Assembly: GCA_964187785.1 (NCBI GenBank)
Contig: OZ076409.1
Location: 57,538,001-57,602,000 of the forward strand
Origin: Amphiscolops sp. MND2022
Lineage: Eukaryota
Length of the DNA stretch: 64,000 nt
Direction of reading: 5' to 3'
Position numbers and translations under genes: made by a program. Below, in pieces: positions 2,877-56,603 of the stretch. Each line of letters starts with the position of its first letter. Position 1 is the stretch's first letter. The notes below the pieces were generated by a model. The model saw only the letters and a list, made by a program, of their open reading frames with translations. It had not been told where the DNA came from and searched no databases.

Positions 2877-5800
2877 TTAATACATGTTGCTGTAGGGGTC
2901 ATGGGGAGGAGATTTGTAGGGGTTGGGGATGTTGCTGCTGTATCTGGCAGGTATGTTAGCAGAGGGTTGCATTGCAGAAGAGGCCTGTGGGAGTCTGTGG
3001 TGCTCATATGGGTTCATTCGTCCTCCGTTAATACCATTCATATGGGAGTTTGGGTTACTCTGGTTAGACCCAGAGCTCTGCGCGTTGAAGGATCCTGTCA
3101 TGGCTGTGGCCATCATTTTGGCCATAGCATTCAACATTTCTTGGCCGAATGTACCGGGGTCTATCGTTTGACCTGTAAACACGATGCCATGTTGGTTTCA
3201 ATTTATTGGACTGACATCGCAGGCATAATTGTTTTGACCAGGAACGCCCTGCGGCCATAACAGACGGTTTTAGTTAGAAACGAATGAGGTTTAAACAATC
3301 TGTTTTGGGAGTTCGTTTTTAACTTTGAAGAAAACTTTTAGAGCTTGTGAGTTTTTACGAAGGCTGAAATAATAAAGCAAATTTCAAGCCACCTTCAGGG
3401 GAACTTGGACCGATTTGTATAAGACGCCCGCTAAGCATGGGTATATGTTTCGCCCTGGAATGATCTAGCGACATAGTTTTCCGCATTTTTGATCTTTCGC
3501 GAATATTTTGGCAACGTTTCAATTTTTTCAATATTGAAACTTCTTCGCATATTCACATATTTGTCTCGTAACTAATTATGGTTTCTTTAGATTCTGCGAT
3601 GTGAGTTCGTAAAATTTAAAGTTTCACCATAATACAGATTTCTTAAGTAGGGCGGAAAAGTGCACTTTTTAAAAAATAATTTGGTAATCAAACTAATGTG
3701 ATATACCTGGGGGACTCATTGGTGCTTGATTCAAATAGTGAGGAGCCTGGTTTGAGTAATGGGGACTTTTGTTCATCTGACCGACACCACCAGCTGCGCC
3801 ATTGTAAGAGCAATTGAGCCCATTGCCAGTGGATGCTATCTGAGAGTAGCCATCATACGAGGGACTACCCGGACTATACTCTGTTTTCACGTTGGGGTAA
3901 TGATTGGTAGCCGCCATTGAAGGGTTATAGAACGAAGCCAACTTCGGTTGTGAATGGGCTGCTGAGTTTTGCTGCTGTTGTTGCTGCTTGTTTTTGTCCA
4001 TCGGATCAGCTGGTCGAACGACCACATGGATTTCCTGCAAAACGAAATGCCTTGATACGATTAAATAAATGTTAAAAAGTCTGAAACGGCCGAAGTCAGT
4101 GCCCCTCTTGCGGCTCGAATTCTTTGGGCGTGTTGCAAATTCCCCACGGAAGTATGCTCTCAGTTGCACAAAAGTTGATCTTTTAGGGTGAATCTGTGAT
4201 TTGTTAGTCATGTAAAAATGGGGCAGAAAAGAAACAGAAAACAAGAAGCATAAAATACTTTAAAATTCAAGACTTGTTTGACTTGATTAATCAACACTCA
4301 CAATTTGGGTTCAACTAAATTAAATTTCAATTTTGACCAACTTCACTAAAAAATCATGTTTTTAGTTTCAATATGCTAGTCAGCTACTCTTTTGATAACT
4401 CTTGCGCAAAAAAAGGAAAGGCCACTGCGACAAAACTTCTCGAACTCTTCAACCAGAACTGTTGCAATGATTAATAGAACATACCGACCATTTCAAACTT
4501 ACAGGCAAAACTAAGATAGAATTAAAAAAACAGTATCAGGGTCTAAATGAGCCATAAAAAATGCGGATCGCTTCTCAAGGAAAGCGGACAAGTTGTAAGA
4601 AGTGTGGCTTCACTAACTCGGATGTAGTGTGACTTTTCAGCAATGGCTCTGTCCGCCATGCAGCTCTCTTCGAAGGTGACGAAAGCAAACTGTTTGCGGC
4701 CCTGATCGTAGTATATCTCACTCACTGGCCCGAACTGTTCGAAGTGCTCCATGAGATCCTCTTTGGAGATCTTGTCCGTGAGTCTGCCCACAAACACTCG
4801 ACACAATTCTGGAGACTGGAAGACAGCACAGGCAACATTACACACCATTACACCATAAATATATATAAAAAATGAAAATTGTGATTTGTGAGTAGTTGAA
4901 ACTGCGATGTACAACTATTTCAGCCGTGACATCTAAATGTATTAAGTTTCAGCCATTTCAAATTCAAAGGACGAAATTTTCAACCTTGAAATTGCAATAA
5001 ACTGGTATTTTGGTTACTTTGAAACGGCAGAAAATCGCAAAATTTCGAAATGGCTCAAGACAATTTGCTAATTTTATTTCTAGATCTTAGTTTGAATATT
5101 ATAGTCAGAAAATGGTGTCTAGTTTTGTTGAAATTCTTGGAAGGAACTGTTCGAAATTACACAATTGGCATTCACCGCGATGGATTTTAAAAATGCTTAT
5201 GTTGACTATTTATAAAACTTCCAAAACGTCCGCCCGAAAAACCCGAGCTTAGTGGAGTAAGGTACCTCGGCAGAATTGGCGACTTGAGTACTATCTTTTT
5301 GTCACAAATTTGAAGCCAAAAAAGGCACGAAAAAGGCTTATGCATGAATAGTGAACACAAAAAGTGAACACTGAAGAAGAGACTTAAAAAATATTTTACA
5401 GAGAAGTTCATAAGTCAAGTCGATATACCGCAATATAGTCAAAAATGTTGGAGTGAGTATCGGTTTAAATAATTAATTTACAATAATTATCATTCTTACT
5501 TAAAATTTAAATGTTTAGAATATTCCCTCATATATGTAAAATCCTTTGTATTTTATCATAATGTGAAGAAATTCAGTGTTTTTCAAGTACTTTGGAAATT
5601 AGTATTCGGTAAGAACGATTCTACCCTATACAGTATCCTAAAGACAACATTTGAAGCACCGTACTTGTGAATTTGGTTTTTTAACTTGAACTTTTCTGCC
5701 ATCGATGACGAACGCAGCTCCATTGACTCGTTTCTGGTCGTCATAATTAACGAATCGGATAAAGCCGAAGCCACGAGAAAGTCCTTCTGTGTTCTTCATG

Positions 5801-8800
5801 ATCTAAACAATCAATAATGGGCCATAACAAAAATCACCCACTCAAATAGATCAATTATTGGTACATTTCAGGGCTGCTGTTTTGTAATCAATACCGCCGA
5901 CAGGTCGAGTAAGTAAGGACAAGACAAAACCATTCGCCGTCACCCCCAAACACTCGGTCAGGTCAGTTAAGGTGACTTGCTCACCCTTTGCGCCTCGATA
6001 TTCTTGATGTTCCGTCCTGAAAAATTAAAGATATGTTAATAACGCTTCAAAGAGAAACGACCCTTTTCGAATCTTAATGTCAATGCCAGCAAAAGCGTTC
6101 AGCTCTCAGATTTCAACAAATTATCAACATCCCTAAATATCAATCTTGAAAATTGGGCCCTGCGGGGCACAGTATTATTTCTGCTTTTTATGCTTTCATG
6201 TTCATTGATAGAAGCATATCTGGAAAACTAAACACTCCTGTTTAATCATTATACAGCGTACAATTAAACACTGTACCAGTTTACACCGCATTCAATTCTT
6301 CTCGGACCAAAGAAAATATACACTAGGGTACCAAAAAGCTAAATACACTCCATTTGGCCTACGAAATATTTCAAAACGAAATATCTTTTATTTTATTCAT
6401 TTTACAGAAAAATCACAGGAGCAAAAGTATCTCAAAATTTGATAAGAATTACAACGGTACTTTTTGTTTCCAAGTCGAATCGAAATTTCGAAAGGGACAC
6501 ATGCTGGTATGAGTACTTTTGGATTTTTTCGAACTTCACTATGCAATATCTCGAAACCTACTGATGAAATGAACAAGACGGGAACGTCTCAAGTCGGCGC
6601 TATATCTAAGGCTAAAAAAGCGCAAAACATTTTCTTGGAAAAAAACTTGAAATTTTCGAGAAAAAAAATTTCTTTCGGAAAATGTCGCACAGTGCGGAAA
6701 AATGTAAAAGGGGGGACCCTTTTTGATTTATGAACACGCATTCTGTAGCAAAATAAAAAACTCAAAGGGGGGACCATTTGGGAACATTAAAAAAATTTCG
6801 AAAAAAAGTCTCACAGTGCCGAAAAAAAATCGAAAGGGAGGACCCTTTAGTCCCGTCCGGGCTTGTAGGTAACGTTTAAAAAGTAAATGAATGCGCTCCC
6901 CGTTTGCCTTTACCGGTCCAGTAGTTTAGTACTGTATTTAGTAGTTGAACGTTAATTTTAACGTTCGTCGCTTCGAGTCTGACATAAATTTAAAAAAAAC
7001 GAGTGACTGTAATAGTCGGGCTCTTTTCTTAAGAAAAGCGCCGACTAAAAAGATCACCCGATTAATTTTGTAGCCTTGACACCGTTCTTTATTTTTATCT
7101 GTAACACTTTTTCTGAAAATTCCGTCAAAACAATATTTTCACGCAGTAAAAATTGAAGTTTTCATTTTGTGATCATTTTGCGGTGTCAATTCATAAGGAG
7201 GACATTTTCAGAAAAAGTGTTGCAGAAATTTCTTATGAACAGCGGTTGCCGAAATATTGCATACTAAATTTCAGAAATTGTCAAACGTCAAAAATAAGGT
7301 AAGTGTCATAACTTTTGTACATTTTGATTGAATGCAAAACAAAAATTACCCATGTAATGCTGATCAAAATTGAACATTTTGTTTCAGGGGTTTTTGTGCC
7401 AATTGAATATGTAACACGTTATTGCGATTTGATTTTTTCGTCAGCGAAATCTAGTGTATTTAGCTTTTTGTAACTACTAAGCGTATAAAAAGTTTCGTAT
7501 TCACATTTGAATGCAGACGAAGCTCTCGGCGAACGAATAATTAACATTCGTTCGCTTCATTTCTAAATCGGCGTACGAATGCGTAATTACCACTCGCTCG
7601 TTTCATCGCACGAGAAACGAATTTTCGTAGGCAGCTTGAGAAATTCAAATCTCACGCTTATACTCACTGCCGGACAAAATATGATTTTTTCAATAGGTAC
7701 TCGAATCGCGTACGAAAAATTGACTGAAAAAAAAGTTGCAAAGTTCAGATTTCAATATTATTCCTGCTATCGCCGAAATAATAATCAAGAATTAAAGGAA
7801 AATAGGGTTAAATTTTTCTATTATGTATCATATTTTAAATTATTCCTTTTGGAGTTGGAACAAAAATTGACGAAACTATTCATCACTTCAGTAATTGACC
7901 AAAAACGCCAATTTTAAAGCCTATAAGATCCAAGAATACTTGAGAGTATTTTTTTTCGCGTTCCAAGTTTATGTGCTTAAATCTTTTGAAAAGCAAACAT
8001 AGAACGCTTCAAATGCATTCACAGAGGACACAAACAATCAAAAATACGAGTTACCACATTTTAGAATTCAACTTGAAAATATTTAGAATTTTAGAATTCA
8101 ACTTAATTTAACGAGTTAAATTCATGACTTATTCATACTTAGGAACAACCTTACATATCCTCTACAAACCCCTTTGGCCCAATCCTTTACAACTTTGAAT
8201 AACGACGTCTCACAAGTAACAGTAACCCCCAACAGGCAGAAAACGCTGCATTTTGTCCGTGTTTCGGATATTTACACATTAGTTCCAAGTCTATAACCCG
8301 TTCAAAAAAACAGAAATCCGATAAAACCGCTTGTGAAAACCATCTCAGTTGAGAATCACAAGATCAGCGATTTTCTATTCATGCTGGAAACAGGACCTAG
8401 CAAAAGAGTGACTATGCAAGACTAATCAATATGGCTCTTTAGACACAAAACAATATTTACAGAAAATGAAAAGCAGTAATTCTACAGCTTGACAAACGAC
8501 CGCCTGATTATTCAACCGCCTGATTATTCAATTATTTGAGCTCGATATACAAGTCAAATAACTTTAGTCCGCCGAATTGAGTTATAAAAGAAAACAAGCC
8601 TTTATAAGTGAAAAAGCGCCCGCTTAAGGTTCAAAAAGAGAAAAGTATTTCAGAGCGTCGATGAAATTGGTCACTTCGACCGAATTGAAAAAAATGAATA
8701 AAAAATTTCAAGAGAAAAAACTACGAAAAAGGACTATATTAGTCGCGTTTTACTTCATAAAGCCCCGACTAAAAAGAAACGCAATGGCACTGTAATCTTT

Positions 8801-11800
8801 TCTGTTTGAAGCTCAAAAATAAATAGTCTGAACGATCGATAAACATCCCCCATTTTCGGGTCTTTTTTAGTCGGCACATTTTAGTAGAAAATGTGCCCGA
8901 CTCTTGCAGTGGGTAGTTTTTTTTAGACGCGTAAGGTCCACTTTTTTGTTCATTTGTTCAACAACTTGAACTATGGAGGTTCAAAACACTCGAACCTCAG
9001 AAGCGCGTCCAAAACGAAAAGACACTGTTCTGTTCAAAAATCACATTTTAAAAAATTTTTTGGAATTTTTTTAAAGTCAAAGGGTCCCCCTTTTACAATT
9101 TTGAGCCTTAGATATGGCGCCGACTTTGGCCGTTCTCGGCTTGTTATACATTAATTTTTAAAAAATTGCAGAAAAAAAAACGGATTAAGTACCAGGTGAA
9201 AAAGATTAAGAAGCATCACCGTGGCAATGATGATGCCAAAAATCCAAAGAAAAGCAATATCAGTTGCAGAAAGATTTTACCTAGAAACGGTCGAGAAACG
9301 AACAAGCCGGGAACGGCCCAAGTCGGCGCCATATATAAGGCTCAAAAATAGCAAAAGGACTTCAATGTGTCAAGTATTCTCTTCTACAGTACCCGCGTGA
9401 GGAAAAAATTGAAAAAAGATTTCGAATTTTTATTGAATTTTTTTCGATATTTTTTTTTGTCTCCGGTAAGTCGCATAGTGCCGAAAAATGTAAAAGGGGG
9501 CCTTTGGGAGTTTTTGAACATCCATGTTTTTGCAAAATAGGAAAAAATGAAGGGGGCCCTTTGGAGACATTTAAAAAATTTGCGAAAAAAAGTCTCACAA
9601 AGCCGAAAAAACCTGCACAAAAAAATTTTGGTCATGGGCGGGACTCGAACCCGTCCTTCTGCTTGGCAGACCTCAAAAAATTAGAAGCAGAAGAAGCTCA
9701 ATTAGTGTGGCAGTTAGTGGAAGCCAGCTTATAAAATCTGTCACTTCGTTGGTCTTAAAAAAAGTCACTGCTATAGTCTGCGTTTTCTACGAAAAGCGCC
9801 GACTAAAAAAGGTTGAGACATATCACTTAGAACAAAGCCTTTCACTTGTTGAGAAGTGCTAAATTTAGTTTCATTTCGCAGTTTGTGAAAATCGGGTTTA
9901 GAGGTGATCCGAGTGCTTCGAAGGCCCGCAAGATGAATATTCCAGTGACAAAGTTTGATGCTTAAAAATTGCGGCAAAATTCCGTTCTCTACAACAATAT
10001 CCTTAGATTACGATTAAACTTGAAATCTCTTTGATCGTTTTCTCTCAATGCTTAAGTCTTAAAATCTCTTAAATGATCAAGTAGAAACAAACAAAGCATG
10101 TGGTGATGGTATGAAAAACACAAATATTAAAAAAACTTACTTACATTTAGTAGCAGCAGAGAGCAGAAAGTCATCAGCAGCATTACAAAATCATCAGCAG
10201 AAACCAACTGACGACCCCGGGTTCGTTATTACGTCACTATATTACGTCATCAAGAATAATATAGGAACAGCAGATTGTTGTTGTGCAGGCATCGATCAGA
10301 AGAAATCATCATCATCATCATCACCATTAAAGTTATCGAGACAAAAGATCGAAGTGGAGGACAAAGGTAGAATAAGATGGTGATAATCAGCAAAGCATCA
10401 TCAACAGCAGAAAGTAACACAGACACAATAAGTACTACTGTCACTGAGCTTGGCAAAAAGCAAGAGGAGCAAAAAACAGTCAGAGGCAGGCCTAAACGGT
10501 GTTTTTATAACCAGTTTTAAGTTTCCAGCATCATGCATACACCATCAAAGTTAAACTAAGGTTGAAATTAACTTTATCAAGTTCTATACATGTACATAGG
10601 CTAAGGTCTTTCTCAAACGGATATCTCCAAATTATTTTTCAAAACTTATTCATAGAGAGAAAATTCAGGAACAAATGGACAAACAGTGTTGAAAAACTGA
10701 AGGAATGTCAAAAGAAGTAAAGTTTGTGGTATCATTTTCCAATTTCTGTTTGATCTACAAATCTCTCTCAATCATTTTTTCCGTTTCCTGTAAATAAGAC
10801 CGGTACCATCTGCAACGACGAAACCGGTAGAGATTCGCTTTGAAGAAAAATAATCAAAATATGACTTCATTCATTACTCAAAACCAATTTCGATAGTCGA
10901 AAACAATGCCGAGACGATACAAATATCATCGGTGCATTTTCAAGAGAAATTGAAGCTCCAAAGTTAATTTAAGTTTGATAGAAGGTTGCTCAGAAGACTT
11001 TGCAATTTCACGCAGAATTAGTTGAAATGGTTTGAATTGCGTTTATACACTCCCCGACAGCATACAGTTTATTCTAATTGCTTTAGAACCAAGTAAAATT
11101 TCCCCGTTTTCGGAGTTGAAACTTGTCGATTCTCAAGCATACCAATAAAGTATGATCTTCAATGGCCATTTCATGCTTCAATAGAATACTGTAGTCTGTT
11201 GAATATAATGTATCGAAACTAATGAAAGATTTTAAAAATTAGATGAAGCAATCCACGGTCATTATTGATGGGTTTGATTGGAAAACAGGAATTCAATCAA
11301 GGTTGATTCTGATGCCAAGAGATGATGCAATTAAAACTTGAACTTTACACTCGGGTAAAATTTGCATTCAAATATGTAGACAAAATAGACCATTACGGGT
11401 ATGGATGATTAGTAAAACCGCATGCAAGAAGTGGAAAAAACTGATTACCTTGAATTAATACTACCAAACTTCTGATCCTAATCAAAATAGCACTTCCAAT
11501 TTCTACACAGGGTAGGATCACTTCAAAATTATGCAAATTAGGATCATTCCCACTTTCGAAAACATGATATTTAGCTGGTACTCTATTTCAGCAGCAGCAA
11601 AAGTCACTAATAATCCAAGTTTTCACACTGCAGATCAGCCAAATTTCATCGTGTATAAGCCGCAATTAAAGTCCGGTGATGTCATTAAAAGAAGCTTCTG
11701 TTCAAATAAGGAAACTGTAATAAATCAGTCTACACAGGATGAAATTCGCAGATTGATCATAACTAAATCAGCATACTTGCAAAGACAAAGGTCAATAACA

Positions 11801-12610
11801 AGTCATCGAATCAGAGGGTCAGTAAGAGAGGGCAGAAAAAAGCAGTACTAACTTGGGTGAAAGAAAGTTCTCCGTATTTGGAGAAGAACTCGGCTAAATT
11901 CTCTTTGGTATAGTGGTAAGGCAGATTCAGCACTACTAAGTCTGATGCCTGTGGAGTGGGTCGCTTTGTCTTTGATACTTCCGCCTGAGCACTGTCCTCC
12001 ATTTTCCGTTTATTATCTAGAGCAACAAAAATCAAAAATATAACCAATATTGACCTTTATCAAGCATGCACTTCATCAGTGTATTATTATCTAGATTGAG
12101 CCACAAACGAAACCAACTGATTTGTTGAAGCCATCAAGTTAGAACAAAAAATTGGTAAAATTGCGCGTTTGTCTTCTACAAGGTTCAAAATTTTGGAGCT
12201 TCCCAGAACTGACGCATGAAAATTTTTGGTCTGTATGAATTCAAACGGCCCCTTTAAATTTTCGGTAGTGAGAATTCTTCAACGAATCAGAAGATTTTTC
12301 TTGGATTGAAGCTGATTCCGGGTTGTCACTTAGATGATACAAATCAGGAGCTTTCCCACAAACCTGTTTGGGTTTTTACAGTGTTCACCAGGTACACGGT
12401 ATCTCCCCAACCTCCTTCGGGGGGATAGAGAACCCCATCTGCCAGTCTGACGCCCCTGAATGCGCGGTTGGAGGGGTTGCGGAATTTGAGACCGACAGCT
12501 GACGGGAACTGACTCTGCACTGAGGAGAGTAACACTCCCCCGTCATTCTCGACGGGCACCTCGATTGGATCGTCTGTCTCTGACTCCGAAATGGCTACGT
12601 AGTACTCCAT
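2877..12610 (-). CDS. TARDBP: TAR DNA-binding protein 43 (TDP-43), 456 aa; exons 12364-12610, 11853-12016, 5665-5802, 4618-4815, 3707-4034, 2877-3172
   Basis: N-terminal domain MEYYVAISE..PIEVPVENDG.VLLSSVQSQFP..VGLKFRNP; NLS DNKRKM; RRM1 (SDLVVLNLPY..SRGFGFIRF); RRM2 (RVFVGRL..FAFVTF); Q/N/S/Y-rich C-terminus with helix EMLNAMAKMMATAM. All introns are GT-AG with compatible phases (1,0,0,0,1). Confidence 0.95.
3419..3676. mobile_element. HINE-like element family B (in TARDBP intron 5)
   Basis: AAGACGCCCGCTAAGCA start and TTTCGCCCT/AGGGCGGAAAA subterminal inverted repeats; homologous start at 21000. Confidence 0.55.
6155..7785. mobile_element. HINE-like element family D with a nested TIR element (~6321-7470) that itself contains a family A copy
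   Basis: 6155-6320 plus 7472-7785 align with the uninterrupted copy at 18976-19458. The insert is bounded by CAAAAAGCTAAATACACT / AGTGTATTTAGCTTTTTG. Confidence 0.7.
6572..7051. mobile_element. HINE family A copy
   Basis: AACAAGACGGGAACGTCTCAAGTCGGCGC ... GCGCCGACTAAAAA. Confidence 0.8.
8863..9145. mobile_element. HINE family A copy (short, opposite orientation)
   Basis: TTTTAGTCGGCAC ... GCGCCGACTTTG-GCCGTTCTCGGC-TTGTT; same subfamily as 15372-15913. Confidence 0.8.
9301..9810. mobile_element. HINE family A copy with partial tRNA-like cassette
   Basis: AACAAGCCGGGAACGGCCCAAGTCGGCGC ... GCGCCGACTAAAAAA. Confidence 0.8.
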
Positions 12611-18906: not shown

Positions 18907-18975
18907 GGTTATACTTTTCCAAAATTCAAATTTTGGCGCAATCCGCTTTTCTCAAAAATCTTTGAACAATAGAAA

Positions 18976-19458
18976 AACAGGCCCCTGCGGGGCACAGTAT
19001 TATTTCTGCTTTTTAGGCTTTCATGTTCATTGATAGAAGCATATCTGGAAAACTAAACACTCCTGTTTAATCATTATATAGCGCACAATTAATCACTGTA
19101 CCAGTTTAAACCGTCTTTAATTCCTCTCGGACTAAAGAAAATATAACTACTAAGCGTAGACGAAGTTTCGTACTCGCATTCGAATGCAGGCGAAGCTCTC
19201 GGCGAACGAATATTTAACACTTGTTCTTTTAATTTCAATATCTCGGTGTACGAAAGCACATTTACCGCTAGCTAGTTTCATCGCACGAGAAACGAATTGT
19301 GGTTGGCAGCTTGAGAAATTAAAATCACACGCTTATACTCACTGCCGAACAAAATATCTGAACTTTTCAGTAGGTACTCAAATTGCGTACGAAAAGTTGA
19401 TTGAAAAAAGTTCAAAAATTCGGATTTCCATATTAATCCTGATGTCGCAGAAATAAAA
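18976..19458. mobile_element. HINE-like element family D
   Basis: AACAG + hairpin GCCCC-TGC-GGGGC, subterminal TTATTTCTGC ... GCAGAAATAA; second copy at 6155-7785. Confidence 0.7.
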
Positions 19459-43727: not shown

Positions 43728-46513
43728 GCAATGTTTGGTAAACATTGAAAGAGGCGCCATTTAATAAATTCTTGGAATTCATTTGGTTATCTGGTTTTTA
43801 GGTACCCTGGTTGGAACTGCTTGAATGATTTTATAAAATTCTCAAAGAAATGTCCATGCATTAAATCTTCACTGATTAGATTTAATTTTATCAAGCTGCC
43901 TATAAAATGCATCTTAAATTTGGCGGCAATTCTGCGCCGCGACGTTTTGGAAGTTTCATAAAGACGCCGTTCTAATTTTGAAATCACTGAGACCTTAATC
44001 AATTTTACCACGCTTTCAATGCAAACAAATTCAAGTCACATTATAAGTTTCAAAGTGGCGTCATATTCAGCGTGCTAGTTGGCTAACGGTGATTACATAA
44101 GGTACTTACATGGGAAACTTACGCGTGAAAACAAAGTGATCGCTGCGGTGAAGAAGTGGAAATGTTTTCAGTTTTAATTCAAATAGTGAAGGCTGCATGG
44201 CAATCCTACAAAATGTTTCCACGCACGGTCCCGGAATTTTCCATGTTTTATAAAAAATTAGCCTGCATGTTTCCATGCAGCATGTAAAAAGTTCAAGCAA
44301 TCTCGACTAGGGTATCTTGGAGAATCACGAACTTTTTTAAAGTAGACTACAAATTTCACCGATTGGATCACAAAATGAGTGAAGATCAAAACCTACACAG
44401 AGGCCAGTATGTTACCGTAAACAAGTCTCTTTTCGCGAGAGCTTATGTACGATCTTATACACCCGAGTTGATAAATTTCAACAATCAATCAGTCCTCATT
44501 AGTGCTCATTACAATCCTGCAGAAAAAATTGTTGTCGATTCCCGAATAAGAAGTTCCAAAATTGGCTTCCTTCCAAGTAAACACAAGGATAGGTCCTGTG
44601 TAGTATGCTTTGACAATAATTTTGTCAGAGTCAAACAGAGATTCGTACAAATCTAAAATCCCGAGGGTGTTTAATGAACTATCGTTACAGCCGGGTGAAA
44701 TTTCCCTAACTTGATGTTGCCTTTAAACGAGAACTAGAACTAACCGCTGAAGTAGACAGCAATTTCAATTATTTTTTACGGCTTATCAGTTCACTTGTCC
44801 GCTCCGATATCAATACAGTTCCCACAATCTCAAAAAAAGTAATGAAACCATTAAAGCTTTGGAAACACTGACTACCGTCACACGCACAAGAAGAACAAAT
44901 CACCGGCGGAATTTTACCGAGTGGTGACTGTCAAACTTTTTGTGAAGAGTCAAAGCACAGAGATCAATTTGTCAAAAATCTTACGCGCTCACAAAAAACA
45001 TTTTTGAGAAATTCGGAATATTTTGCAACAGAATTAACCAAATTGGACAGATTGGATTTTCAAAACAAAATGATGTAAACAAGAAACAATACTCGGAGAT
45101 ATCGAATGTGGAAATTTATGTCTGATTAAGAACGGAAAACCAGAGATGTACACGACAGTTTAGATATCACTAAGCTAGAGGTCCATGAGGTTTTATTTGT
45201 TGATTTGGCTTTGGAAATGCTTCCATTTTTCAAAGTTTGGAAGGTTTTCTCAAATAATTGAACCAAAGTCATTGACCGAATATATTTTTTTTCAATCCAG
45301 GGAGAAGGGTTTTAGAAATAAGGTCAATCGAGTAAAGCCTCTGAAACTTTTATATAAATGACAGTCCCGGTTGAGTTATAAGAGACATGGCCGGATCGCC
45401 CCTATTGTCGTATTAGCAACAGTGTTTCTTTAACTGAAAACAAGAAAACATCAAGGTCAACAAGAAAAGTCTCGCAGGGCCAAAAACTTCAAATGGGTGA
45501 TCTTTTGCTACCTTTTGATATGGTCCAAGATACATTTTTAGACCTGCTTCACGATGATATGCCTACTGACGAGTTTGAACAAAAAAAGTGGACGCTTCGA
45601 GGTAAACTGAAAGGTATGCGGGAAACTCATCAAAAACAACTCATCGAAATTTCAATGGTGGGAAACTGATGGATCGAAAATTATCTCATCAAATAATAAT
45701 TGAGTGCAAACTCGTCTAATAATTACAGATTACCCACAGGGACTCTTGTTTTGCTAGTATTTTTGACTTGTTGTTTTCGGCGAGTTGTTTTTGACGTTTT
45801 CTTAGATTCGAACTGACGAACAAATCTCAAAATATAACCATGAAATTAATTTCTTCAAATAATTTTGTCATGACTTGAAGAGGAGGAACCCTTGGAAAAA
45901 CTTGCTATTTTGTTTATAGGAAATTATTGAAAATTTGCAGTGGGCATTAAATGGTCACTTCCCCAGGTTAGGATCTCTTCAGGCGACGACAAAAAACATT
46001 CTGGAAAAACTTGCGTACTTCACGAGTTTTCTTGATTTTCAAAAACAGATTCAAGAAAGTGTTTTTACTTGTATTGAAATATTTGTTTTATACAGTTAAA
46101 TTTCGTCTGGTAATTTTTGGACCACTCGAATAGAACTTTTAGGTTGTTACTTTCCGTCTTTTCGGGAAACCAAAAGTTTTAGTTTTAACAGAAAATGTTT
46201 ATATATTTTTTTGCATCTGTTTCTGCCATTACTTCTATAACTGCTTCAACTGCTTTAATTTTTCTATAATTCATAAGCTGCTTTGTCTGGGGAGTATCAC
46301 GGAAGTACGGAGTATGACTGTTCAAGTCCCGTGCAAAACCAAATTTTCATTGCTTGCACAGGTTGAGGAATGACCGAAAGTTCACCCTGTTGGGTTTTTT
46401 GGTACTATGCGACGTTTTCCTGGTTTTTAAAAACCGAATCAGCTTTTGATTTTAGGAGGAATAGAGCGTTTCGCGAGCATAAATACCCGCGGGTGTTTTC
46501 AGAACAGTGCAAT

Positions 46514-49500
46514 TGTGACATCATGTATTATGTCATACTTGAGATTACACCATAGAGGTCCAAATACTTCTAGACATTTAAGTACCTGTCAACATTTATG
46601 TTTATCATATATGCTGGTACATGTATATCTTATTATAGTACCATATTCGTATGAAATTCAGTTGGAATGGAACACGAATAACAAACAATACATTGTTACA
46701 ATCTATATGTTCCTCATCTTGACCTTACGATACGATAGAACATGGCGCAGTCGGAATAAATAAATGGAGAGCAACAAAAATTTGGAAAGCACAAGTTCCT
46801 CAAATGGAAAAACTTCAGAACGGGGGACCGCAAACAATGAGAAAACTCATCAGAAGACCACCCTACCTACCTTCGAGAAAAGGGGAACACAAGAGGCCGA
46901 ATTGTGGTGGCGTAGATTCACCCAGTACATGAAGATGACTCAAAACATCGATCTGAATATCATGACTACAGACAGAGAAATACTGGAACAATATCGAGAC
47001 GAACTAGAACAACGGGTCAAAGACGTTTTCATAGAGGCACTGGGCGAATCCGTCATCACTGAGATGACAAGAACCGTTCGAGACAACGATCCGAACAGAT
47101 TGGATCTCAACCACCTACATTCGTTGTTCAGACTACATTTTATTCCAGAACGTTACAAATTTCGAAGCCGAGACAATTTCTTCTGAATCACACGAGAGAA
47201 AAGTGAAACAGCCAACGACGCCTGGACACGAATTTTTCAAGTAGAAAAGAATTGTGAATTTGAAAACGTGACCCCTGCAGTACTAATCGCGTCAATGTGT
47301 TTATCATTCATTGGAAGAAAAACGGGCGATTTTGAGTTAAAGTAGAAAATTAGAAAGCGACATGACTATTGAAACACTTACGGACATAGTACACGAGTAC
47401 ATGTATGACAGGTTAAACGAGTCAAGCATTTCAAACGATGGCAGAGAAGCACAACACATTCAAGAACGACAATACAAACGGAAATGGTCTGATAAATTCA
47501 GTAACGAAAGTCTAAAAAAACCCAAATAATCAAAAACCAATATATAAAGACAACCGGTGCGGACAATGCAGTGCACCTAACTGGTCAAGAATGCACAACT
47601 GCCCAGCAAAAGCCGCTGAATGCCGTAATTGCAAAAGAAGGGTATACTACGAAAAAATGTGCAGATCACTGAAGAAAAAAAACATATCGAAGGAAGTCAT
47701 CATCAGCAGAAGAAGAAAACTGGGACTATAACAAAATACAGAAGATAAATGGAAATGATAAGAGAGTATTCTACAATACAACGCTGTTGGACNNNNNNNN
47801 NNNNNNNNNNNNNNNNNNNNNNNNNNNNNNNNNNNNNNNNNNNNNNNNNNNNNNNNNNNNNNNNNNNNNNNNNNNNNNNNNNNNNNNNNNNNNNNNNNNN
47901 NNNNNNNNNNNNNNNNNNNNNNNNNNNNNNNNNNNNNNNNNNNNNNNNNNNNNNNNNNNNNNNNNNNNNNNNNNNNNNNNNNNNNNNNNNNNCAACAAAG
48001 TTAGATTTTGATTATGCATATGGACAAATCCAACTGGACAAATAGAGAAAAAATATATGCATATTTATCGTCAAAAGGTGGAGTATTCTTTGGATACTAC
48101 CGCTTCTTAAAAGGATTCTACAGACTGGTAGATATTCCAACAAACTTCCCCGACAACCAATCTTCCAAGAACACCAATCTTCCAAGAACACTAATCTTCC
48201 AAGAATACAAACACCCATAGTGGCTTGACGATCTAATAAGAGTAACGAAAAGGGATGTGAAGCAACACGAAGCAGACCTTAGAAAAACAATGAAAAAACT
48301 AGAAAATGTCGGATACAGACTAAACATATAGAAGTGCGAGTTTCAAGAGCGAAATTGAATGGATGGGGTCTAAAATCGATCAAGAGGAATACGACTACTT
48401 TCCTTGGAGCGATCCAGTACCTCTCAAAACTTATCGAGATTTTATCTGCCAACACTGACATTTTGAGAAAACATTTGAAGAAACAAAACCAATGGAATTG
48501 GACAGACGAATATATCAAAGCATTGAACAAATTAAAGGAATTTACAACGAAAACATCCATGCCTGGCCCTCTGTAACGCAAATAATGAAAACATTTTAAC
48601 AACAGAGACGCTAGTACAAAAAAGTTTGGAGCAACACTGTCGCAACGGCAGAAAGATGGCAATTTTAAACCGTTCGGACACGCAAGCAGGTTCTCATTGG
48701 ATACTGAGAAGAATGCAATAAACGAACTGGAGCTACTTGCGGTAGTATAGGTTCTGAATCATTTCAACCAATTGAATTACTGACATATCATCAGGCGCTA
48801 GAACCACTAATAAGGAGAAACAGATCAAATAAAACGGATAGCGTAAGTCTAACACAATGGCTAGATAGAATGGCAGATTTTGACATAAAGATGAGACATC
48901 GTAGACTTTTGAGCAAAAATCCAGTGTCAAAACCAGAACGAATAGAAAATTACAATGAAGAGTACATAATTGATTGCACAATACCTTTATTCGAGTTCAT
49001 CAACAACCACAGCAGCATCAACGAGTCAAAGATGAAATAAACGCGAATGGACAACTCAAAGAAGTGTGAACAGAAAATCGACCAATCACAAAACAGTTAT
49101 CGAGAGAAACCGAAGTCAAAGGACAGTAAAGCGAACAATCGCAGTTCGTTGCTATCATCTCAACAGAAAGTTTCACACCATCAGAAAAATATCAGAACGG
49201 ATTATAAAAAGATTGAACAATTGGAGAAGGAAGTCTCCTCAGCAGAAACACTTGTTCTGACAAATAGATGGAAAAATTTAGGTAAACCGAACAGTTACAA
49301 AATGAGGAATGGAGTTTGACAGCATACAACCCACCAAGATGCCACCGAATGGAAACCAAACGGATCGAAGTGGAACTGCAACAAAAGATTAAGAAACTCG
49401 TCTAGAAAAGAATAGAACAACAGAGCCAAGAAACATCGGATGAAAAAAGCAGACGAGAAGAAATGTTCAGAGTGAATGGGAAAATTAGAATCACACCAAT

Positions 49501-49664
49501 GCAAAACAACACGAACGAGCAAGGGACCAGTAAAATTACATCAACGGAAGAAACGCGAAGAAACCACATCCAAATAATTAAATTCACGTACCGGCATTTT
49601 GCTTCAAAAAGTAACTGGGAATCATATAGATCCAAATGGGGCGAGTGAGTCATGTCCAAGAAAA
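46514..49664 (+). mobile_element. Truncated duplicate of Gypsy element (5' LTR 46514-46742, PBS, gag, partial pol)
   Basis: TG...CA LTR, PBS TGGCGCAGTCGG, gag ORF at 46764, CCHC-like knuckles, DFDYAYGQI, WLDDLI. Confidence 0.88.
47793..47992. other. Assembly gap (200 N)
   Basis: Run of N; the paralogous interval in the second copy is 52348-52760 (413 bp). Confidence 0.99.
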
Positions 49665-51063
49665 ATTTGTTGTATTGGCTTTGGAAATGCTTCCATTTTT
49701 CAAAGTTTGAAAGGTTTTCTCAAATAATTGAACCAAAGTCGTTGGGCGAATATAATTTTTTTCAATCCAGGGAGAAGGGTTTTAGAAATAAAGTCAATTG
49801 AGTAAAGCCTCGGAAACTTTTTAAATAAATGACAGTCCCGGTTGAGTTATAAGAGACATGGCCGGATCGCCCCTATTGTCGTATTAGCAACAGTGTTTCT
49901 TTAACTGAAAACAAGAAAACATCAAGGTCAACAAGAAAAGTCTCACAGGGCCAAAAACTTCAAATGGGTGATCTTTTGCTACTTTTTGATATGATCCAAA
50001 GTACATTTTTAGACCTGCCTCACGATGATATGACTACTGACGAGTTTGAACAAAAAAAGTGGACGCTTCGAGGTAAACTGAAAGGTATGCGGGAAACTCA
50101 TCAAAACAACTCATCGAAATTTCAATGGTGGGGAAACTGATGGATCGAAAATTATCTCATTAAATAATAATTGAGTGCAAACTCGTCTAATAATTACAGA
50201 TTACCCACAGGGACACTTCAGTGCTGATTATGGAATAATTTTCCCTAATTGATGCATGAAATTTTCTGGTTAATGCATATTATTGCTGTTTTAGTTATAT
50301 AATTGCTAGTATTTTTGACTTGTTGTTTTCGGCGAGTTGTTTTTGACGTTTTCGTAGATTCGAATTGACGAACAAATCTCAAAATATAACCATAAATTAA
50401 TTTCTTCAAATGATTTTGTCATGACTTGAAGAGGAGGAACCCTTGGAAAAACTTGCTATTTTGTTTATAGGAAATTATTGAAAATTTGCAGTGGGCATTA
50501 AATGGTCACTTCCCCAGGTTAGGATCTCTTCAGGCGACGACAAAAAACATTCTGGAAAAACTTGCGTACTTCACGAGTATTCTTGATTTTCAAAAACAGA
50601 TTCAAGAAAGTGTTTTTACTTGTATTGAAATATTTGTTTTATACAGTTAAATTTCGTCTGGTAATTTTTGGACCACTCGAATAGAACTTTTAGGTTGTTA
50701 TTTTCCGTCTTTCGAGAAACCAAAAGTTTTAGTTTTAACAGAAAATGTTTATATATTTTTTTGCATCTGTTTCTGCCTTTACTTCTATAACTTCTTCAAC
50801 TGCTTTAATTTTTCTATAATTCATAAGCTACTTTGTCTGGGGAGTATCATGGAAGTACGGAGTATGACTGTTCAAGTCCCGTGCAAAACCAAATTTTCAT
50901 TGCTTGCACAGGTTGAGGAATGACCGAAAATTCACCCTGTTGGGTTTGTTGGTACTATGCGACGTTTTCCTGGTTTTTAAAAACCGAATCAGCTTTTGAT
51001 TTTAGGAGGAATAGAGCGTTTCGCGGGCATAAATACCCGCGGGTGTTTTCAGAACAGTGCAAT

Positions 51064-54000
51064 TGTGACATCATGTTTTATGTCATACTTGAGATTACAC
51101 CATAGAGGTCCCAATACTTCTAGACATTTAAGTACCTGTCAACAATTATGTTTATCATATATGCTTGTACATGTATATCTTATTATAGTACCATATTCGT
51201 ATGAGATTCAGTTGGAATAGAACACGAATAACAAACAAAACATTGTTACAATCTATATGTTCCTCATCTTGACCTTACGATACGATAGAACATGGCGCAG
51301 TCGGAATAAATAAATGGAGAGCAACAAAAATTTGGAAAGCACAAGTTCCTCAAATGGAAAAACTTCAGAACGGGGAACCGCAAACAATGAGAAAACCCAT
51401 CAGAAGACCACCCTACCCACCTTCGAGAAAAGGGGAACACAAGAGGCCAAATTGTGGTGGCGTAGATTCACCCAGTACATGAAGATGACTCAAAACATTG
51501 ATCTGAATATCATGACTGCAGACAGAGAAATACTGGAACAATATCGAGACGAACTAGAACAACGGATCAAAGACGTTTTCATAGAGGCACTGGGCGAATC
51601 CGTCATCACTGAGATGACAAGAACCGTTCGAGACAACGATCCGAACAGAATGGATCTCAACCACCTACATTCGTTGTTCAGACTACATTTTATTCCAGAA
51701 CGTTACAAATTTCGAAGCCGAGACAATTTCTTCTGAATCACACGAGAGAAAAGTGAAACAGCCAACGACGCCTGGACACGAGTTTTTCAAGTAAAAAAGA
51801 ATTGTGAATTTGAAAACGTGACCCCTGCAGTACTAATCGAGTCAATGTGTTTATCATTCATTGGAAGATTAACGGGCGATTTTGAGTTAAAGTAGAAAAT
51901 TAGAAAGCGACATGACTATTGAAGCACTTACGGACATAGTACACGAGTACATGTATGACAGGTTAAACGTGTCAAGCATTTCAAACGATGGCAGAGAAGC
52001 ACAACACATTCAAGAACGACAATGCAAACGGAAATGGTCTGAAAAATTCAGTAACGAAAATCTAAAAAAACCCGAATAATCAAAAACCAATATATAAAGA
52101 CAACCGGTGCGGACAATGCAGTGCACCTAACTGGTCAAGAATGCACAACTGCCCAGCAAAAGCCGCCGAATGCCGTAATTGCAAAAGAAGGGTATACTAC
52201 GAGAAAATGTGCAGATCACTGAAGAAAAAAAAACATATCGAAGGAAGTCATCATCAGCAGAAGAAGAAAACTGGGTCTATAACAAAATACAGAAGATAAA
52301 TGGATGGAAACGATAAGAGAGTATTCTACAATACAACGCTGTTGGACAACGAGAGACCATTCAAATTCGTTATAGACAGCGGATCACCAGTACCACTAAT
52401 CAAAAATTGCCTATTAAAGAAAACAACCAAAGTGAATCACCAATTACCACTTAAAAAGATGAAAATAACCAAAGAATTGAACTCACTGGACAAACGAAAG
52501 CAACAGTAAAAACAAACACCAAAACGCTAGAATCACCATTGGTGATTACAAATGCAATAACATCGCTGCTGATGAGATTAGATGAGATGCAACGGTTGGG
52601 AATACATCTCAACAACAATAACAGCGAAGTACAAATACACAATACAAAAACGGATGATACTAAGTCACAATAAAACAAAAAACTCAAACGCGAAGCTTGG
52701 AAGAAGAAATTTTAAGGTTTCCAAGGAAATCATCAGAACGAGAAGACGGCGAAATTCCGGCAACAAAGTTAGATTTTGATTATGCATATGGACAAATCAA
52801 ACTGGACAAATAGAGAGTAAATATATGCATATTTATTGTCAAAGGTGGAGTATTCTTTGGATACTACCGCTTTTTAAAAGGATTCAACAGACTGGTAGAT
52901 ATTCCAACAAACTTCCCAGACAACCAATCTTCCAAGAACACCAATCTTCCAAGAATACAAACACCCATAGTGGCTTGACGATCTAATAAGAGTAACGAAA
53001 AGGGATGTGAAGCAACACGAAGCAGACCTTAGAAAAACAATGAAAAAACTAGAAAATGTCGGATACACACTAAACATGTAGAAGTGCGAATTTCAAAAGC
53101 GAAATTGAATGGATGGGGTTTAAAATCGACCAAGAGGAATACGACTACTTTCCATGGAGCGATCCAGTACCTCTCAAAAATTATCAAGATTTTATCTGCC
53201 AACACTGACATTTTGAGAAAACTTTTGAAGAAACAAAACCAATGGAATTGGACAGACAAACATATCAAAGCATTGAAGAAATTAAAGGAATTTACAAAGA
53301 AAACATCCATGCCTGGACCTCTGTAACGCAAAAAATGAAAACATTTTAACAACAGAGACGCCAGTACAAAACAGTTTGGAGCAACACTGTCGCAACGGCA
53401 GGAAGATGGCAATTTTAAACCGTTCGGACAGGCAAGCAGGTTCTCATTGGATACTGAGAAGAATGCAATAAACGAACTGGAGCTACTTGCGGTAGTATAG
53501 GTACTGAATCATTTCAACCAATTGAATTACTGACAGATCATCAGGCGCTAGAACCACTAATAAGGAGAAACAGATCAAATAAAACGGATAGCGTAAGTCT
53601 AACACAATGGCTAGATAGAATGGCAGATTTTGACATAAAGATAAAAGACATCGTAGACTCTTGAGCAAAAATCCAGTGTCAAAACCAGAACGAATAGAAA
53701 ATTACAATGAGGAGTACATAATTGATTGCATAATACCATTATTCGAGTTCATCAACAACCACAGCAGCATCAACGAGTCAAAGATGAAATAAACGCGAAT
53801 GAACAACTCAAAGAAGTGTGAACAGAAAATCGACCAATCACAAAACAGCTATCGAGAGAAACCGAAGTCAAAGGACAGTAAAGCGAACAATCGCAGTTCG
53901 TTGCTATCATCTCAACAGAAAGTTTCACACCATCAGAAAAATATCAGAACGGATTATAAAAAGATTGATTAATTGGAGAAGGAAGTCTCCTCAGCAGAAA

Positions 54001-56603
54001 CACTTGTTCTGACAAATAGATGGAAAAATTTAGGTGAACCGAACAGTTACAAAATGAGGAATGGAGTTTGGCAGACATACAACCCACCAAGATGCCACCG
54101 AATGGAAATCAAACGGATCGAAGTGGAACTGCAACAAAAGATTAGGAAACTCGTCTGGAAAAGAATAGAACAACAGAGCCAAGAAACACCGGATGAAAAA
54201 GGCAGAGGAGAAGAAATGTTCAGAGTGATTGGGAAAATTAGAATCACACCAATCCAAAACAACACGAACGAGCAAGGGACCAGTAAAATTGAATCAACGG
54301 AAGAAACGCGAAGAAACCACATCCAAATAGTTAAATTCACGTACCGGCATTTTGCTTCAAAAAGTAACTGGGAATCAGATACATCCAAATGGGGCAAGTA
54401 AGTCATGTCCAAGAAAAGAAGGAGTGGAATTTGGGAAGAGAGGGTGAGACAGGCCGAACAAAAATTCTCAATAGATTCAAAAAGATCGGAATTGAGACGA
54501 GAAAAGATAACAAACTATTAAAAACATTGGTCTGCCTGGAGCGACAAACACATCCCAGACGAATATTAACAGTACACAAAGAATCTAGCAAAAAGATTCC
54601 GGGTAATGTGTTACGATGACAAGATAATCGTGCTAAGAAGTGTGAGAAACACTTTCATCACCCTACTTCATGAAAGACACCACTCTGTCAACAAGATGAC
54701 ATACGCAGCAAAGCCATTTTGGTGGCCGAAGATGAGCAAGGAGATTCAACAGAAAGATGACGACTGTATACCTTGCAAAAGGACTGGAAAGAACATTAAG
54801 CCTGAATAACATTTGACAGCGGTGAAATAATTACCACAATCCCAGAAACCAAACCAAGAAATCCAAATGGATTTCATTGGACCAATCAGATTTAAACAGA
54901 GACAATTGTTCATACTACTATCGAAACAGCAGACGGGCAGCAGCGTACATTTTTGAAACTCCTACGGGCAAAACCGCAAAAAGTTTTTTTAGAACGTTTC
55001 ATAATACTTAATTGTATACCACAAACCATTAGAACATAAAAAGGCACGGCTTTTGCGAGAAGAATTGAGAGAATTCAGCAAAAACATAAATTCCAAACTA
55101 GTGTACAGTACACCGTATATACATACACCAACCAGACTGGTGGAGAGAGGAATCAAAACACTAGAAGGTTACATGCGTGCAAACCCATGGGAGGGATGCA
55201 CAATGAACGAAGCTTTAAGCTGTTAACCAAATGTGATGAGAACAACGGGCAATTCCAGAACTAAAGAAACCCCTTTTGAACGACATTACGAAAGAAAACC
55301 TAGAACAGAACTGACCAAATACGTAAATCTGTCACCAAACGCTGAAATTAATGTTACTTCAGCGAAGCCAGAAACACTGTAGGTGTACATGTTCTCGAAC
55401 AATGAGGGACATCACGATCAACTGGTGATGAAAGCACCCCGCAAACTCAAGGAGGATGTTCGTAAAAACTTTCCATACACTTTTCTCGGTAAGAAAGTAA
55501 ACAAAAACAAATTCGAAGGTGCATCTGTTACTAAACCACAAACAACAGTAGCCGGAACAAAACACACATTTACGACGGGCAAAAACGAAATAATACACCG
55601 GAAAAGAGTAAACAAAACGTTGAAATCTACAGTTCAGAATCCAAAATCCAGACGAGGGAAACATCGGCGAGGACCAGATGGCTGGTTCACATTAGTAACG
55701 CTGAACCAACCAGAGACGACAACGAACGCGGAACAACCATTAAGAGCGAGCACTCCCATCTTGGAAAAGAGCATGCTGGAGACAACACTACAAAGCCCCA
55801 CTGAAGTAAGCCCCGCATACTCAGCGGGGAAAAGCAAGCTGATAAGAAACAAATTCGAACAAAAATCACGATAAGCCTGCAAATGGACCTGGAAAAGATG
55901 AACGAGTCAGAAGACATACAACAAAACATAACACCAATCTGAGATGATCCAAACGCCATAATAGTGAGCGACAGAAACGGTAATACCGATTTGATAAAAA
56001 TAGAACAAACAGAAAATTCAAATCAAAACACAAATAACCAAAACGAATTATTCACACGAAAATCAACAAGAATTAAAACGGCAAATCCTATGGTAATCCA
56101 ATAACATTGATCATTGTAGGAAAGACTGTGAACAACTGGGACAAACAAAACAGTCAGTCGAACAACTAACGCGGAGTGAACCGAAAGCAAAGCACGGATT
56201 GGTGGAAGCTTCCAGCCAATGAGGAAGAAGTAGAAGAAAACCGCTGACGGAGAATGAAGGAAGAAACTGGAACTTCTCATCAAAACAAACTGTTTTGTAC
56301 CGTTTATTTAAATAAGTCATGTTAACAATTAATTTGTCATACACCTTGGTACATAGTCCTTCGTTGAGGGGGGAATGTGACGTCATATGTTACGTCATAC
56401 TTGAGTTTAGACCATAGAGGTCACAATAATTCTACACAGTTGAGTACCCTCAACATTTATATTTACCATATATGCTTGTACATGTATATCTTAATGTAGT
56501 ATCACATTCGTATGAGATTCAGCTGGAATAGAACACGAATAACAATTTATTGATTGTTACAAGCTATACTTTCCTTATCTTGACCTTACGGTACGATAGA
56601 ACA
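51064..56603 (+). mobile_element. Ty3/Gypsy (Mag-like) LTR retrotransposon, degenerate; 5' LTR 51064-51292, 3' LTR 56376-56603
   Basis: TG..CA LTRs; PBS TGGCGCAGTCGG (tRNA-Ser-like); PPT GAGGGGGGAA; 5-bp TSD GCAAT/GCAAC. Gag, protease VIDSGS, RT (partly deleted) WLDD, RNase H DAS, integrase LHERH..FWWP..CIPC and MDFIGP; many stops and frameshifts. Confidence 0.92.

Follow-up and report, generated by a model that had tools for sequence, protein, structure and literature searches.

A candidate alternative 3′ splice site within RRM1 of an acoel TDP-43 gene, with unproductive products predicted

In the TDP-43 gene of the acoel Amphiscolops sp. MND2022, intron 2 interrupts the coding sequence of RRM1 and contains, at position 6016 of the minus strand, an acceptor that may be a genuine alternative 3′ splice site, a reading to which, judging from features of the DNA, we give a little less than an even chance. 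Joining exon 2 to this acceptor is predicted to introduce an early stop and to make the RNA a target of nonsense-mediated decay (NMD), with or without use of a donor at 5985. The window on which this analysis is based is a stretch of 64,000 nt (contig OZ076409.1, positions 57,538,001 to 57,602,000), in whose numbering all coordinates are given (Table 1).

The host gene consists of six coding exons on the minus strand (12610-2877) that together form an open frame for a TDP-43 of 456 aa. Pfam finds the TDP-43_N domain (PF18694) and pieces of RRM_1 in it, which places it in the TDP-43/TARDBP family. The exons were placed by tblastn with protein P0001 of Convolutriloba macropyga, the sole relative of exon 1 among 100 candidates (86% identity), which itself matches human TDP-43 with an E value of 2e-59; this likeness points to an acoel near Convolutriloba. 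Intron 2 is 6050 nt long, and one third of it is made up of repeats present elsewhere in the window. Five open reading frames from other acoel assemblies (P0009, P0010, P0012, P0018 and P0019) diverge directly after the Gln that ends exon 2, which indicates that a phase-0 intron inside RRM1 is common to these acoels. P0012, from an ENA contig, has an exon-2 peptide identical to that of the window and differs in the residues after the donor; it represents a very close relative or another haplotype. Several further features of the locus were recorded. Exon 4 has a second acceptor at 4808, 7 nt from the one at 4815 (minus strand), and use of the downstream one would shift the frame. Intron 4 has an acceptor at 4080 (8.8 bits, minus strand), 46 nt before exon 5, and a bump in GC content at 4197-4070 (minus strand) within an open reading frame continuous with exon 5. 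TGCATG words, which we take to be of the Rbfox type, occur on the minus strand at 12070, 11427 and 10537, in the vicinity of exon 2 and in the opening part of intron 2, which is unique sequence. The upstream neighbour is a Rab-family GTPase gene (17827-15190, minus strand, Pfam Ras), presumably Rab14-like, and the downstream neighbour (957-783, minus strand) is a gene that begins with a hydrophobic segment. Farther away, nine kilobases at 45195-54417 are almost wholly self-repeated, with a strong A/T strand skew, and enclose a 200-N gap (47793-47992).

Table 1. Features of the TDP-43 gene and of the candidate region in its intron 2 (window coordinates).
Feature	Position	Strand	Remarks
TDP-43 coding exon 1 (N-terminal domain)	12364..12610	-	ends phase 1; Pfam TDP-43_N E 3e-28
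Coding exon 2 (NLS-like basic region plus initial third of RRM1)	11853..12016	-	164 nt; ends phase 0; tblastn
Dispersed-repeat copy with strongest intron 2 acceptor (first base 6219)	6149..6325	-	92% identity to 18974-19149
Branch-point match (TATTAAC at -25), pyrimidine tract and AG of candidate acceptor	6017..6041	-	
Candidate 32-nt cassette exon	5985..6016	-	unique sequence, 50% GC, 72% purine
GC island	5866..6016	-	50% GC; begins at acceptor, extends ~120 nt past donor
Predicted 7-bp hairpin over donor positions -3 to +4	5969..5987	-	
GNGUGNNUGN match 1	5946..5955	-	+30 to +39 past candidate donor
GNGUGNNUGN match 2	5834..5843	-	-41 to -32 before exon 3; over possible branch point
Gap between candidate and exon 3	5803..5984	-	182 nt; mini-intron if donor used; otherwise retained, stop 5983-5981
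Coding exon 3 (remaining RRM1)	5665..5802	-	138 nt
Coding exon 4 (RRM2)	4618..4815	-	Pfam, tblastn
Coding exon 5 (RRM2 end, low-complexity region)	3707..4034	-	tblastn; donor inferred from frame
Coding exon 6 (C-terminal region to stop)	2877..3172	-	tblastn

An earlier note on this DNA had proposed a 32-nt poison microexon at 6016-5985 (minus strand), and its elements are all in place: the preceding AG, the following GT and GU-rich stretch, the 182-nt gap to exon 3, and the phase 0 in which exon 2 ends and exon 3 begins. Inclusion of the cassette does lead, as the note had held, to a premature stop at the start of exon 3 (5798-5796, after 149 codons), and sensitivity to NMD is rightly predicted: three junctions follow this stop, the last of them 657 nt away, and a poison exon calls for a stop over 50 nt ahead of some later junction. 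Should splicing take acceptor 6016 and pass over the donor, exon 3 would grow by 214 nt and the frame would close after 148 codons (5983-5981); acceptor 6219 combined with donor 5985 would give a 235-nt exon and a stop after 142 codons. With stops at 149, 148 and 142 codons, any splice from exon 2 into this region would be unproductive, and donor 5985 may be dispensable, since read-through also stops at once. We consider the 32-nt cassette a possible, if on balance unlikely, outcome of the choice of 6016, and the 214-nt read-through a rather improbable one. Skipping of exon 3 was rejected as a route to NMD because the skipped product is in frame (410 aa). The out-of-frame stop at 5798-5796 overlaps the in-frame ATG that forms the second codon of exon 3 (window 5799-5796, minus strand), so that re-initiation could yield an N-terminally truncated protein. 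This second-codon Met is also present in C. macropyga, while vertebrates have Lys at the position.

Both splice sites had been called strong in the earlier note, a description that is upheld for the acceptor and only in moderate degree for the donor. Our scoring matrices draw on this window only (11 donors, 13 acceptors); two of the acceptors, in an untranslated region or adjacent to the start, had been inferred from sequence alone, and the Rab gene was the sole additional training material that Pfam yielded from 105 GC-rich open reading frames. On these matrices acceptor 6016 scores 10.0 bits, in the upper range of true sites and third of the 267 AGs in intron 2, and donor 5985 scores 6.2 bits, sixth of 325 GTs and in mid-range (in leave-one-out scoring the 11 true donors span 1.4 to 12.4). 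The sequence GTTAGT is read by five of the 11 donors used. Elsewhere in intron 2, an unmasked pair at 10809-10573 (minus strand, 237 nt) has a higher summed score than the candidate (16.9) and an intron-like GC content (32%). A unique UG-rich block at 10500-10140 (minus strand) is filled with TGATGA and CTGA words, matches an Rfam C/D snoRNA at chance level (E 4.7) and ends in the donors at 10145 and 10141, which score highest in intron 2 and have no strong acceptor to pair with.

Splice-site strength alone says little, since it is easily reached by chance. Pairs spaced by no more than 51 nt with both sites equally strong arose in 29 of 200 Markov-simulated introns, and pairs equal by summed score in 78 of 200. 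Three equally strong short pairs occur on the two strands of the real window, the candidate included, and within the GC island an acceptor and donor of equal summed score (6.8 + 9.3 versus 10.0 + 6.2) lie opposite the candidate, on the plus strand of its 150 nt. The candidate could thus be a pseudo-exon arisen by chance, in which an AG and a GT happen to fall on the margin of a GC-rich patch in the intron and are spliced only at noise level, and the choice of the site by eye, in a gene that invites such a story, adds to this suspicion. We hold this reading to be quite plausible, if somewhat short of probable. It needs, however, a coincidence of the acceptor with a GC step, a branch-point match and a second TDP-43 motif. 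GC content rises from 23-35% before acceptor 6016 to 50% over 6016-5866, compared with a mean of 35% for introns and 41-55% for coding exons, and the acceptor thereby opens the sole exon-like GC island of intron 2. Among 429 AGs in ten introns, 17 reach at least 7 bits, and exon-like GC then follows only 6016; on the opposite strand it follows none of eight good AGs. The GC maximum of the island was matched in 9 of 500 simulated introns, acceptor and GC step together in 3 of 400, and these two plus the donor in none of 400, figures for which the thresholds were set on the candidate itself and which come from Markov nulls that understate real patchiness (the bump in intron 4 reaches 52% GC). 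Counted in the real DNA, the threefold pattern is found at two other unannotated places in 128 kb, an empirical rate of about 0.1 per 6 kb that favours chance. Taken together, the acceptor, GC step, branch point and motifs give modest support beyond chance.

Two further explanations are very unlikely in our estimation. The GC island might be the remnant of a mobile element, an antisense exon or an intronic RNA, its splice-like sites being incidental: it adjoins a repeat copy, continues well beyond the donor and has splice-like sites on the plus strand as well, and repeat masking covered this window only. Yet the island is single-copy within the window, none of the three frames is open across the 90-nt antisense pair, and the longest open reading frame over the island (57 aa) has no homolog among 1.84 billion proteins and no Pfam match. 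Rfam likewise gave no match over the island, and a snoRNA or miRNA reading was therefore dropped. About as improbable is a protein-coding alternative in which exon 1 is joined to the cassette and the cassette to exon 3. Because 32 and 164 nt share the same phase, this product is in frame, and it runs open to the normal stop; the resulting 412 aa would lack the NLS region as well as the initial third of RRM1. Skipping of exon 2 alone, by contrast, stops after 100 codons; NLS-less splice products are reported in human, as with Met85-TDP-35 (PMC8113996). But a matching phase is expected by chance in one third of exons, exon 2 and the cassette are 5.8 kb apart with nothing to exclude one or the other sterically, the cassette peptide bears no likeness to exon 2, and such a protein is absent among 1134 and 50 candidates, which hold only one full-length acoel protein. 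A dual use of the same 32 nt, which would poison the transcript when joined to exon 2 and stand in for the NLS exon, in frame, when joined to exon 1, we judge highly improbable. As for RNA structure, none in excess of shuffles was found around the candidate (z from -0.5 to +0.6), and the donor hairpin is marginal, its folding being equalled in 5.7% of 909 GC-matched GT contexts; on both grounds we set aside a switch of the donor between two RNA states (-17.1 versus -16.6 kcal/mol).

If acceptor 6016 is used in vivo, TDP-43 itself might be its regulator. By alignment, the acoel RRMs are substituted at the positions of W113, D174 and D247 and keep F147, F149, R151, R171 and F194, all of which we take to have roles in RNA contact. 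The motif GNGUGNNUGN, a footprint of TDP-43 RRM1-2 (bioRxiv 2023.08.01.551528), has two matches within the 182 nt between candidate and exon 3, as compared with 20 in 128 kb; two matches arise in 1.4% of 5000 simulations of local composition, a figure to be read with match 1 having been part of what guided the original choice of the site. Nowhere in the TDP-43 gene is there a (UG)3 run, and four UG repeats are reported as the in vitro minimum for TDP-43 and TDP-1 (PMC12820612). In the 1057 nt after the stop of the host gene we found no match to GNGUGNNUG. TDP-43 bound near splice sites is described as repressing them, while distant binding can enhance inclusion (PMC13343711). Given that the motifs adjoin splice sites, where TDP-43 represses, a weakening of the exon-3 acceptor is likelier than an activation of inclusion, and we infer that the geometry fits repression better than the TDP-43-promoted inclusion proposed at first. 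Abundant TDP-43 would bind the GU motif over the branch region of exon 3 and the motif past the cassette and, in its usual role as a repressor, would weaken the productive acceptor of exon 3; exon 2 would thereby be diverted to 6016, so that either the cassette or the read-through RNA would be made, each a predicted substrate of NMD, and TDP-43 would be lowered when abundant, a negative feedback. We regard TDP-43 feedback of any such kind at 6016 as unlikely on present indications; the missing (UG)3 run, the reported four-repeat minimum, the substitutions in the acoel RRMs and the result for fly TBPH given below all count against it.

Autoregulation of RNA-binding proteins through poison exons, alternative sites and retention is described as common (PMC6547761). 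Like the poison exons of SR proteins such as SRSF3 and SRSF7 and the essential exon of PTBP1, the acoel site offers a frame-breaking option in the gene of an RNA-binding protein, with a stop far before later junctions and candidate motifs for the gene's own protein close by; those cases, however, have support from NMD inhibition, knock-down and CLIP and are usually highly conserved (PMC6547761), whereas the acoel site is known from sequence. Human TARDBP, a member of the same family, autoregulates through its 3′ UTR (PMC13343711, PMC10530927), where a poison exon is also reported (PMC6547761). In both systems (in human by way of the TDPBR, intron 7, poly(A) choice and sTDP-43) unproductive splicing would lower TDP-43, but the human events concern exon 6 and the 3′ UTR (PMC13343711, PMC10530927) and the acoel option lies inside RRM1. 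The candidate further resembles the cryptic exons that TDP-43 represses in being intronic and frame-breaking, with GU-rich motifs near its donor, and differs from them in having no UG repeat; moreover, repression of the acoel cassette alone would constitute positive, not negative, feedback. Among invertebrates, the TDP-43 gene tdp-1 of C. elegans yields NMD-degraded RNA and is listed among the direct NMD substrates of class I (log2 change 1.3; PMC5765348 File S1), while Drosophila TBPH showed no autoregulation upon overexpression (PMC3605831). IDR-removing splicing was reportedly not found outside jawed vertebrates (bioRxiv 2026.10.06.756961). The cassette is very short, as are the neural microexons that depend on SRRM3/4 (eMIC). 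We rejected membership of that class, as 32 nt exceeds its reported 3-27 nt and the cassette breaks the frame; there is also no UGC between branch point and AG, the nearest being at -75, although UGC is described as usual and not strictly required (bioRxiv 2024.09.17.613571). The available portions of PMC6173133, PMC13247117 and PMC10570059 added nothing to this context.

Searches for relatives of the site returned little. Scans of JGI metagenomes with alignments of exon 3 and exon 2 confirmed none of 488 and none of 101 pattern matches, respectively. Protein searches revealed no isoform that carries the insert or begins at the exon-3 Met, but say little, since acoel records are few: a single full-length protein and fragments of genomic open reading frames. 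In a literature consisting mostly of non-subscription papers, we found no coding-region poison exon in a TDP-43 gene and nothing on NMD or microexons in acoels.

Control of TDP-43 dosage is central to the biology of ALS and FTD and has been described for the vertebrate 3′ UTR; in invertebrates, a study in fly saw no autoregulation and one in worm lists tdp-1 as an NMD target. What the acoel gene offers, if it is real, about which we are evenly divided, is an already familiar type of control at a new location, and as the kind of mechanism is textbook, it would be a new case and not a new principle. That acoel TDP-43 sets its own level by a splice switch in RRM1, rather than by the vertebrate 3′ UTR route, we think improbable. 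Were it so, this coding-region switch would mean that feedback had arisen a second time along a different path, and an early-branching bilaterian would have solved the control of TDP-43 dosage independently.
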